The notes: generated by a model from the letters alone, not told the origin. DNA of 64,000 nucleotides from Hydrolagus colliei (GCA_035084275.1 CM068742.1:66526001-66590000); one strand, 5' to 3'; positions 26,501-56,425 are shown, counted from the first letter of the stretch. Numbers and translations are program-made.

Positions 26501-28305
26501 ATTCAGACAAATGTTTCAGAATGAGTTGGTTAGGAATAAGAAAGGAAGCCAGACAAATTGTTATCAGGGAAGGCCATTGAAATGTACAATGAAATTTAGA
26601 TCAGGAGCAAACCATCAATTAAGGTGAGAAAGAGGAGATTGAGGCTGAGAAGGAAGGTAGCTGGGTTTAGACTGATTCCAGGCTGGATGTTGGGTGTAAT
26701 GTATAATCAATTATGTGTCATCTTGGCTCAGTGCTAGAACTCTCATCTCTGAACAGAATATTGTAGGTTCATGTTGGGATTTGAACTTACATCCTCTAAA
26801 CTCATACTCCAATGCAGTGCTGGTGGGGGAATTGCATTGTCTGAGATGAAGTCCTTCAGATTAAGTTAAACCATGATCCTGTCTACCTATTCAGGTGGAT
26901 GTTAAAGATCCTATGACACTGTTCAAAATGAGAAAAGAGTTTCTCCCGGTGTTCTAGCAAATAATACCCCAAATAAAATCGGTGATTTGTTTCATGGCTG
27001 TTTGTGGGACATTACTGTGTGCAATTGTAAAGCTGCATTTGCCTTAAAATACACAGGCACTTGCATTTCACAATAAAATCCTGTGAAACACTTTGAGATG
27101 TCCTTCCGATGTAGTAAGGTGCCAAATCAAATGCAAGCACAGTATTATTATATTAATTATTATGTTACATATGGAATATTTCCTTTTTTGTAACATTCTC
27201 TGTTTTCCTCTCTGATAGGAAATATGTTGAATGAACGCATTGCTTACCATCGACTGGCTATAGTACATCAGTCTCTTGGGCAGTGCGAGCTGGCTGAACA
27301 CTTTTATCTGAAGGCCCTCTCCCTCTGCTCTTTCCCACTGGTGTTTGACGAGGAAACCATGTACTACGTCAGAGTGTATATACAACTGGGAGACATGACC
27401 TTCTATGACCTCAAGGTAAGAACAAATACTTACATTATGCTTGCATAAATATTATACTAACATAAATACAAAATGAGAACTAATAAACTTCAATAACATA
27501 AAAAACGTGAAAGCTCTAAAATGAAATCCTTATCCATTGCTCTTTTAGCTCTAGTATAGATCTTTCCAGTGCACTCTCCTCCCTATCTCCACTTTTTTAA
27601 TAACAATATTCCTCAGATCTGACATAGTCCCTGAGACATCTCAAAGCGATTCAGAGTATATTATGAAAGGTGTATTGACTGAGTACCTTGTGGGTGAAAC
27701 CTTTTTGTGCTTTTGCAAATCAAGTCATTTAGAACTCAGTCAAGTTGACACTTTATTAGTGACCGGAATGGATAGCCAGGTAGGATATTGGACTTGTTGG
27801 AAAATATGCTTGGTGCTGTAATGGGAGATTAACGGCTTTCCAGAAGGATAAGATCAAATGGACTGAAGGGCCTTCTTCATGTGAAATGATCTTGTGACGT
27901 TACACAACACAAAATTTGATAAAGAGTTGCTTTAAATAAGATCATCATTTTGACTGGTTATTATTCATTCTTACTCACAAGAAGATACAAAGCTTGAATA
28001 ACAATTTAACATCAACCGTATCTGTGCATTTCTGTTGTTCATTGCAGGATCCACATGACGCAGCTGGTTATTATCATTTAGCCCTTGCAGCGGCCATGGA
28101 CGTGGGTAACAAGAATTCTCAGCTGAAAATCTGTACCAGACTTGCCACTATTTACCATAACTTCCTCATGGATCGTGAACTGTCACTTTATTTCTATCAG
28201 AAAGCCAGAGCATTTGCCACTGAACTGAATATTCGAAGAATAAATTTGTCACCAGCCAAATATTACAAAGCCACGGGAGAGATGCCTTCAAAGTCCCTTG
28301 TTTAA
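5406..28305 (+). CDS. SH3TC1: SH3 domain and tetratricopeptide repeat-containing protein 1 (multi-exon gene, 5' end uncertain)
   Basis: Exons joined by eye with AG/GT sites and continuous phase: (5406-5516, 5715-5804 candidate), 7066-7140, 7803-7930, 9280-9385, 9663-9806, 11509-11707, 12789-12862, 13646-13841, 14693-14826, 15253-15294, 16376-18070, 20386-20566, 22011-22161, 23451-23573, 24747-24897, 27219-27415, 28048-28305. [29 protein letters not shown] is the SH3TC family N-terminal block. The C-terminus [60 protein letters not shown] matches my recollection of SH3TC1, not SH3TC2. Confidence 0.9.
5715..5804 (+). CDS. SH3TC1: Candidate upstream SH3TC1 exon (90 bp, phase 1-1)
   Basis: ttttctag|TGCAGAGT...GAATCAG|gtaagt (consensus donor); open frame [29 protein letters not shown]. 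Confidence 0.55.
7066..7140 (+). CDS. SH3TC1: SH3TC1 exon (75 bp)
   Basis: cttgcag|GGCCT...CCGACTG|gtagga; [24 protein letters not shown] joins to AISLKL, resembling human SH3TC1 GVYPTDLTLQL as recalled. Confidence 0.7.
7803..7930 (+). CDS. SH3TC1: SH3TC1 exon
   Basis: catag|CTATTTCC...CTTAGT|gtaagt; [42 protein letters not shown]. Confidence 0.9.
8848..9165 (+). mobile_element. tRNA(Ala)-derived SINE with Deu-like core and L2-like tail; representative near-full copy
   Basis: Head GTGGAGTCCTGTAGCTCAGTGG..GTTTGAATAC (A/B boxes), core CTGTGTGTAATTGGCTGCCGCGTTTC, tail GTGAAGCACTTTGAGAC..CTATCAAAT..(TTA)n. Further copies at about 11805-12595, 18525-18830(-), 19745-20037(-), 22517-22820, 23913-24230, 42177-42480, 43627-43965, 44147-44495, 45115-45450, 47861-48890, 56590-56835(-), 58645-58910, 60628-60885(-), plus many tail fragments. 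Confidence 0.9.
9280..9385 (+). CDS. SH3TC1: SH3TC1 exon
   Basis: tttcag|GAGCTT...CTAG|gtaaac; [35 protein letters not shown]. Confidence 0.95.
9663..9806 (+). CDS. SH3TC1: SH3TC1 exon
   Basis: gacag|GCTTTG...GACG|gtaaga; [47 protein letters not shown]. Confidence 0.92.
10424..10456. repeat. Perfect palindrome, 16-bp arms, 1-nt spacer
   Basis: CGTCTGCACACAATGA-A-TCATTGTGTGCAGACG. Confidence 0.95.
11509..11707 (+). CDS. SH3TC1: SH3TC1 exon, degenerate first SH3-like domain
   Basis: ccttaag|GTTTG...CACCA|gtaggt; [37 protein letters not shown]. Confidence 0.88.
12228..12559. mobile_element. Tigger-like MITE inserted in a SINE tail
   Basis: Imperfect TIRs CAATAAAACCTTAATAATCC and GGATTATCGAGGTTTTACTG; 5' TA; SINE tail resumes at about 12565. 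Confidence 0.65.
12789..12862 (+). CDS. SH3TC1: SH3TC1 exon
   Basis: ttttctag|GTGG...CTTG|gtaaga; [24 protein letters not shown]. Confidence 0.88.
13646..13841 (+). CDS. SH3TC1: SH3TC1 exon, SH3 domain
   Basis: caacag|GTAAGG...CCACT|gtaagt; [57 protein letters not shown] (DY..ELSF..G..W..G..G.V SH3 pattern). Confidence 0.93.
14693..14826 (+). CDS. SH3TC1: SH3TC1 exon
   Basis: tttcttag|GACA...ATGG|gtgagt; [44 protein letters not shown]. Confidence 0.88.
15253..15294 (+). CDS. SH3TC1: SH3TC1 small exon (42 bp)
   Basis: aatccag|ACAAATTA...ACAG|gtaata; [14 protein letters not shown], phase 1-1. Confidence 0.75.
16376..18070 (+). CDS. SH3TC1: SH3TC1 large central exon (1695 bp), TPR region
   Basis: Inside the 599-aa ORF 16300-18099; caacag|AGCAA...GAAA|gtaagt; motifs [43 protein letters not shown]. 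Confidence 0.95.
18525..19537 (-). mobile_element. SINE copy whose tRNA head is split by an L2 insertion
   Basis: Body 18525-18830; first 15 nt of head (GTGGAGCTCCTGTAG) at 19537-19523. Confidence 0.8.
18831..19522 (-). mobile_element. 5'-truncated L2 LINE (ORF2 C-terminus plus 3' tail)
   Basis: [66 protein letters not shown]; (TTG)n tail; CTACA repeated at 18826-18830 and 19523-19527. Confidence 0.92.
20386..20566 (+). CDS. SH3TC1: SH3TC1 exon
   Basis: tctag|GCCAA...GAACG|gtatgg; [38 protein letters not shown]. Confidence 0.93.
20925..21272 (+). mobile_element. L2 3' fragment
   Basis: Similar to the 3' end of the 18831 L2 ([12 protein letters not shown], tail ..GCTATAT..GTTGTTG). Confidence 0.75.
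22011..22161 (+). CDS. SH3TC1: SH3TC1 exon
   Basis: attcag|GGCA...ATACAG|gtaatg; [50 protein letters not shown]. Confidence 0.95.
23451..23573 (+). CDS. SH3TC1: SH3TC1 exon
   Basis: acttag|GTTGCA...TATAGG|gtgagt; [41 protein letters not shown]. Confidence 0.93.
24747..24897 (+). CDS. SH3TC1: SH3TC1 exon
   Basis: tttcag|GATCGA...CTGG|gtaacc; [42 protein letters not shown]. Confidence 0.94.
26222..26431. mobile_element. Tigger-like MITE (about 210 bp)
   Basis: TA flanks; TIRs CAGTAAGAGCCTGTTTATCTGGCA and TGCCAGATAAACGGGCTTTTACTG; same family as 50042-50253. Confidence 0.85.
27219..27415 (+). CDS. SH3TC1: SH3TC1 exon
   Basis: tgatag|GAAAT...CTCAAG|gtaaga; [51 protein letters not shown]. Confidence 0.95.
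28048..28305 (+). CDS. SH3TC1: SH3TC1 last coding exon (stop TAA ends at 28305)
   Basis: ttgcag|GATCCA...; [72 protein letters not shown]. Confidence 0.95.

Positions 28306-56425: not shown

Follow-up and report, generated by a model that had tools for sequence, protein, structure and literature searches.

Here, we describe a second gene of the AMACO family, named VWA2-like, in a 64,000-nucleotide stretch of Hydrolagus colliei DNA (the window; C1:66,526,001-66,590,000 of the 1.0-Gb assembly G000, coordinates without contig prefix being counted from the window start). VWA2-like is a real gene and a real paralog of VWA2, which encodes AMACO, and it is very likely an ohnolog. We regard it as well supported and highly probable that the window holds an intact, transcribed second AMACO-family gene on a SORCS-AFAP1-ABLIM2-SH3TC1 block, a likely VWA2 ohnolog from an early vertebrate genome doubling, whose product is predicted to be a secreted basement-membrane linker without RGD-based cell attachment. 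The observations behind this reading are the gene model, a two-clade tree, the co-occurrence of both genes in several species, paralogous neighbourhoods, spliced RNA of a relative and the missing RGD tail.

Splicing of the minus strand gave 12 coding exons, the first starting at 56425 and the last reading through to a stop at 41330, which together encode 717 amino acids (aa) with zero internal stops (Table 1). All introns are of the GT-AG type apart from one GC-AG intron at 52374 in the VWA1 region, and exon 3 has the length it has in canonical VWA2 (134 nt). Transcription was assessed with two raw RNA runs (X17 and X18) that share a sample code and come from a near relative. In X18, reads were found on the expected strand with a depth of 20-55 on the two large VWA2-like exons and of 0 in unique intron bins; 15 reads were spliced across the intron 41889/42612, and 8 used an alternative acceptor at a distance of 3 nt (41889-41892). 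Depth was 0.8 over 41278-41371 and 0 beyond. At this 3' end a GTAAGT donor at 41337 is followed immediately by the in-frame stop (41332-41330), and an AATAAA at 41366-41361 (minus strand) lies within the final coding exon at 31 nt ahead of the read-through stop. Given this signal and the tapering RNA depth, the transcript may end near 41330, or it may be spliced from the 41337 donor to a last exon not found here.

A profile search for family members returned 384 matches, the best 120 of which were sorted by score against two coelacanth proteins: 27 were paralog-like, 25 of them from jawed fishes and the others from lamprey and hagfish, and 93 were canonical-like. In a tree of 46 selected proteins (LG+C20+F+G4), the paralogs formed a clade of 20 rows (support 100/99) and canonical VWA2 a clade of 24 rows (100/100), both following the species tree. 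The paralog clade holds cartilaginous fishes, coelacanth, bichirs, sturgeon, gar, bowfin and eels; the window protein stands in it as sister of Callorhinchus VWA2-like and does not group with tetrapod VWA2. Both clades contain cartilaginous, ray-finned and lobe-finned members, indicating that the duplication predates the split between sharks and bony fishes. The window protein is 90.6% identical over 699 aa to Callorhinchus 'VWA2-like' (P0001) and 49.6% identical to Callorhinchus VWA2 (P0160), with ranges of 60-91% for six paralogs and 46-51% for the seven canonical proteins tested. Both genes are on record in at least nine species (Callorhinchus, Latimeria, Acipenser ruthenus, Rhinoraja, Leucoraja, Erpetoichthys, Megalops, Conger and Anguilla anguilla), and the paralog is present in the euteleost Aplochiton too. 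Models deposited in RefSeq/UniRef as 'VWA domain-containing protein 2-like' (XP_042201325.1 from Callorhinchus, XP_014349269.1 from Latimeria and XP_006629743.2 from Lepisosteus) are orthologs of VWA2-like; these names are automatic labels, and certain orthologs are named plain VWA2. No description of the paralog was found among the papers listed on VWA2/AMACO, the Fraser complex and ohnologs, and the VWA2 pair was not found in 12 of 24 supplementary files of PMC8455134, in one file of PMC13450315 (whose web database may list the pair) or in four of five files of PMC8302630.

The protein keeps the AMACO order of signal peptide, VWA1, cysteine-rich domain, EGF1, VWA2 and VWA3. By the usual definition of the VWA metal-site motif, the site is complete in VWA1 and degenerate in VWA2 and VWA3. 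Eight invariant cysteine columns, aligned over 17 family members, span the cysteine-rich segment and the start of EGF1, and a profile of the cysteine-rich domain matched 8 of 150 representatives, all of them VWA2-family proteins of vertebrates. EGF1 carries predicted sites for both O-glucose and O-fucose under the standard consensus rules. No profile match to EGF2 was obtained across 28301-46100 (EGF1 control, 1.4e-7). Among the paralogs, EGF2 is present in all eight coelacanth, holostean and teleost models and absent from all nine cartilaginous-fish and all three sturgeon and bichir models; the form lacking it may possibly have arisen by polyadenylation at the start of an intron. The two clades are further told apart by their signatures. 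Among the best 120 of the 384 matches, RGD within the last 120 aa occurs in 0 of 27 paralog-like versus 67 of 93 canonical-like proteins, and DGSW in the VWA2 domain in 26 of 27 versus 0 of 93; in the tree set, the C-terminal RGD/basic tail is found in 0 of 20 paralogs versus 20 of 24 canonical proteins. A 6-residue insert matching the micro-exon was seen in some of the paralog models and in the lamprey and hagfish proteins; the nine canonical VWA2 proteins aligned all lack it.

VWA2-like is similar to human VWA2/AMACO (CCSP-2, on 10q, a Fraser-complex-associated matrix protein) in its signal peptide, VWA1, cysteine-rich domain, EGF1 glycosylation motifs and VWA2-VWA3 part, in exon lengths of 75 and 134 nt where these were compared, and in its linkage to an ABLIM/AFAP block. 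It differs in its identity of about 50% and separate clade, in lacking the RGD/basic tail and, in cartilaginous fishes, EGF2, in possessing the 18-nt micro-exon and DGSW, and in standing tail-to-tail with SH3TC1 instead of AFAP1L2. VWA2 of lamprey and hagfish (XP_032806498.1; Myxine and Eptatretus models) resembles the paralog in having DGSW and, behind EGF1, the 6-residue insert, and in lacking the RGD tail; unlike the cartilaginous-fish paralog, it has kept EGF2. PMC10095167 describes an N-terminal VWA1 and, after it, a cysteine-rich domain unique to AMACO.

Table 1. Features of the window, with positions counted from its start.
Feature	Position	Strand	Remarks
VWA2-like exon 1, ATG and predicted signal peptide	56374..56425	-	in-frame join, GT donor; N-terminus matches P0001 by eye
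VWA2-like exon 2, 75 nt	54700..54774	-	length equals canonical VWA2 exon at C15:437698-437624
VWA2-like exons 3-6, VWA1 domain	51816..53874 (53874-53741, 52483-52374, 52228-52037, 51949-51816)	-	intact DxSxS..T..D motif
VWA2-like exons 7-8, AMACO-specific cysteine-rich domain	49184..50698 (50698-50554, 49239-49184)	-	8 invariant Cys columns
VWA2-like exon 9, EGF1	46083..46190	-	Pfam EGF E=3.5e-10
VWA2-like 18-nt micro-exon	43285..43302	-	AG/GT borders; alignment; RNA depth 5.0 over its 94-nt bin
VWA2-like exon with VWA2 domain, degenerate metal site, DGSW signature	42612..43181	-	Pfam VWA E=3.7e-33; RNA depth about 30
VWA2-like exon with VWA3 domain	41330..41889	-	Pfam VWA E=1.1e-42; spliced reads 15 + 8
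SH3TC1, 18 coding exons within the window	5441..28305	+	last exon from 28048, stop 28305
Two long interspersed element (LINE) reverse-transcriptase remnants	36500..40522	+	between SH3TC1 and VWA2-like; Pfam RVT_1

Canonical VWA2 is represented in the same genome on C15, where its exons 2-3 (75 and 134 nt, lengths as in the window gene) were found at C15:437,698-434,377 with 78% and 94% identity to Callorhinchus VWA2. A Tudor-domain gene follows these exons; we take it to be TDRD1, and the next genes to be CCDC186 and NHLRC2. These agree with the neighbours of human VWA2 given in PMC4068053. AFAP1L2 and ADRB1 were not found on C15, which has gaps at their expected places. Assembly dropout is a more likely cause of this gene shortage than loss, since VWA2, AFAP1L2 and ADRB1 all break off or fail at C15 gaps; a true loss of canonical VWA2 in this species was not accepted, the gene breaking at an N gap. 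That VWA2-like is instead the animal's only VWA2, moved or misassembled beside SH3TC1, would suit a canonical gene represented by just two exons and is nevertheless very improbable: these exons stop 80 bp before the N gap, with AFAP1L2 and ADRB1 likewise missing near gaps; Callorhinchus has both genes in full, and sharks show the same SH3TC1 pairing; the window gene falls in the paralog clade, which refutes its orthology to VWA2; and C1 around the locus runs for 644 kb without any N gap.

The original prediction had proposed a second VWA2 and not a displaced one, and this is what the separate 100/99 clade, the nine species with both genes and the canonical copy on C15 indicate; its expectation of a VWA2 beside TDRD1 is matched by the exons next to the Tudor-domain gene. 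That mammals have one VWA2 only agrees with PMC10095167, which gives AMACO as the sole member of its subfamily, without a paralog or second AMACO-like gene in human and mouse. A locus at C2:34.1 Mb (39% match) and 11 further VWA loci were rejected as VWA2, being other VWA genes. At the C15 N gap at 434,093, a UBTD-like gene abuts the VWA2 fragment across the gap, and at another, 25 Mb away (25,695,916), putative SFRP5/GOLGA7B/CRTAC1-like genes abut ABLIM1. These junctions suggest mis-ordered scaffolding, with AFAP1L2, the VWA2 3' exons and ADRB1 left unassembled.

The neighbour of VWA2-like in the window, SH3TC1, was spliced from 18 GT-AG-bordered exons into 1339 stop-free aa with 88% identity to Callorhinchus SH3TC1 (P0269), and an additional coding piece probably lies just upstream of the window start. 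Callorhinchus and sterlet each have one extra SH3TC1 record on a different contig. A genome-wide SH3TC search returned SH3TC1 as its only candidate. In human, SH3TC2 presumably lies between an ABLIM gene and ADRB2, and a profile search of the corresponding gap-free region (C19:6,800,001-7,000,000) did not find it; SH3TC2 has possibly been lost in this lineage. Between the SH3TC1 and VWA2-like stops there are 97 open frames of 45 aa or more, and every one of them was run through Pfam: three matched reverse transcriptase, one had a weak RAP1 match within a LINE frame, and no further gene was found. No X12 or X2 contig spans this interval. Within it, the stretch 38550-38360 (minus strand) is conserved with Callorhinchus, where it forms the last exon of an old model (P0245), and is frame-shifted with stops in the window; it may be a 3' untranslated region or a conserved non-coding element.

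The order on C1 is SORCS (+, 66.09-66.14 Mb), AFAP (-), ABLIM2 (-), SH3TC1 (+), VWA2-like (-), an RRM gene and NPY2R (+). We take the RRM gene to be RBM46, and AFAP1 (versus AFAP1L1) and SORCS2 were assigned presumptively from position. ABLIM2 was the top PDB match for two of three exons tested and the second for the third, and AFAP-type PH exons were found on C1. The SORCS-AFAP-ABLIM2-SH3TC1 neighbours, together with NPY2R, identify the region as the chr4-type paralogon. The genome has three ABLIM loci (C1, C15 and C19), and C19 carries ADRB2-ABLIM-AFAP. The pairing of SH3TC1 with VWA2-like recurs as consecutive locus tags in Scyliorhinus torazame (scyTo_0013253/0013254) and Chiloscyllium punctatum (chiPu_0003136/0003135), and in 15 of 15 species with both recorded, including coelacanth and sterlet, the two lie on equal-sized contigs, which shows one chromosome and not adjacency. 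The human chr4 order and strands are likewise SORCS (+)/AFAP (-)/ABLIM2 (-)/SH3TC1 (+); on human chr10, VWA2 lies tail-to-tail with AFAP1L2.

The original prediction thus held up for its layout, an intact SH3TC1 (+) converging tail-to-tail on an intact VWA2-like (-) without coding exons between them, on which splice models and Pfam scan agree, only LINE remnants having been detected; it also held for an AFAP1/ABLIM2 paralogon with both genes upstream of SH3TC1, where they were found. Its inversion of [AFAP1-ABLIM2-SH3TC1] at this locus did not, as it predicts HTRA3 by AFAP1, where a SORCS gene stands instead. The C1 block is already in human order, so that no inversion has to be assumed for it, and VWA2-like may just have been lost from the human locus. 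The alternative of a third SH3TC gene on a chr10-type block is at odds with the identity of SH3TC1 to its Callorhinchus counterpart and with its position adjoining ABLIM2. By the human chr5 and chr10 orders, the chr4/5-type and chr10-type layouts do differ by one ancient inversion, that of the ABLIM-AFAP unit; with chr4 and chr5 as sisters, either type may be the inverted one. An ADRB gene close to the paralog would help to polarise this inversion, but none was found there, the only one being ADRB2 on C19.

These regions belong to the chr4/5/8/10 paralogon of PMC2453138, where (8,10),(4,5) is reported to be the commonest topology. A VWA2 copy could also have come to lie by SH3TC1 independently of genome doubling, if the single gene or a small segment was duplicated in early jawed vertebrates. 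The trees do not date the split against the first (1R) or second (2R) doubling, the flank order differs (SH3TC1 tail here, AFAP1L2 tail in human), and the 200 kb past the paralog 5' end showed no TDRD1- or ADRB-like gene. Such an origin is nonetheless improbable: the chromosomes of both copies carry ABLIM genes and belong to one known paralogon, intron positions are shared, and a random landing beside an ABLIM paralog is unlikely.

Under the ohnolog reading, an ancestral block would have doubled; the chr10-type copy would have acquired the RGD/basic tail, dropped the micro-exon and become AMACO; the chr4-type copy would have remained tail-to-tail with SH3TC1 and been lost on the line to tetrapods. 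The balance tips towards 1R as the event that split paralog and canonical gene, since it reportedly separates chr4-type from chr10-type regions; the 1R/2R framework is that of PMC7269912, whose text does not give the chromosome pairing. Mean identity is 55% to the paralog clade versus 49% to the canonical clade for lamprey, and 47 versus 41% for hagfish, and the traits common to cyclostomes and the paralog (DGSW, insert, no RGD) may be ancestral. Rooting was attempted with a three-domain tree and five distant VWA proteins as outgroups, the same five serving in every one of its three partitions. In single-domain trees, VWA1 separated canonical from paralog plus cyclostome proteins with a Shimodaira-Hasegawa-like approximate likelihood ratio of 83, and VWA3 gave a polytomy; no invertebrate ortholog was found in the best 150 of 1404 representative matches at 1e-30. 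A bolder and tentative reading, to which we give somewhat less than an even chance, makes the paralog the copy that has stayed closest to the AMACO gene of ancestral vertebrates and the true lamprey/hagfish counterpart, split from VWA2 at the first doubling; mammalian AMACO would be derived (RGD gained, micro-exon lost), fishes with both genes would run a two-protein epithelial basement-membrane system, and tetrapods would have lost the older-type member.

Several observations weigh against a retained, functional ohnolog of this age and distribution. The best outgroup-rooted tree unites both jawed-vertebrate clades, at 77/93 only, and the approximately unbiased (AU) test rejected neither paralog plus cyclostome (p=0.43) nor canonical plus cyclostome (p=0.25). 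According to PMC4906994, ABLIM, AFAP and SH3TC are placed in the paralogon, but it is unclear whether these families expanded in 2R. HTRA3 lies at C1:63.96 Mb, about 2.1 Mb beyond SORCS, and the block is rearranged past VWA2-like. The canonical large VWA exon was absent from all 80 candidates, the canonical gene being only partly assembled, and X17 gave zero VWA2-like exon reads. Loss in tetrapods rests on the best 120 of 384 matches from a word-indexed search that overlooked the teleost Aplochiton paralog. Finally, AMACO-null mice have no detectable phenotype according to PMC10095167.

Three features of the surrounding C1 sequence were noted apart from these genes. Inside an ABLIM2 intron, C1:66,406,976-66,408,601 (L041:976-2601, minus strand) holds an intronless 542-aa importin-alpha frame with IBB and Arm repeats, likely an intact retrocopy. 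Between NPY2R and a presumed RAPGEF2-like gene, a broken 18S ribosomal RNA sequence with a piece of 5.8S at C1:66.732-66.734 Mb (L027:2306-4456, minus strand) adjoins a tandem array of about 30 kb and is a ribosomal DNA remnant. A short GC-rich stretch between the RRM gene and NPY2R (C1:66,636,755-66,636,850, minus strand; L017) resembles a histone H2B fragment.

As to function, mouse AMACO reportedly mediates RGD-dependent attachment, and PMC5774751 has AMACO binding FRAS1 CSPG domains and residing at the basement membrane. We lean slightly towards a role in which VWA2-like would be secreted and O-glycosylated on EGF1, would dock like AMACO on Fras1/Frem-type complexes under epithelia via its VWA and cysteine-rich domains, and would act as a matrix-matrix linker, not as an integrin ligand. 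A real ohnolog whose mode of action differs from that of AMACO, being for instance a matrilin/collagen VI-type adaptor of cartilage or interstitial collagen, would accord with the missing RGD/basic tail, with the absence of EGF2 from all nine cartilaginous-fish models and with an identity of about 50%, which allows divergence; the protein has, however, retained the cysteine-rich domain peculiar to AMACO, both glycosylation motifs of EGF1 and the order of its domains, all of which speaks against it, and we consider it unlikely, if by no means negligible.

That cartilaginous fishes have kept ohnologs is well known, so the finding is only moderately surprising. With VWA2-like, the list of genes lost on the way to tetrapods grows by one and the chr4/5/8/10 paralogon gains a marker family; the gene also calls for caution, as certain fish genes that bear the name VWA2, and possibly lamprey ones, are not orthologous to the human gene. 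A sister gene without RGD, and in sharks also without EGF2, would offer a natural domain-deletion comparison between the Fraser complex-binding and the cell-binding parts of AMACO.

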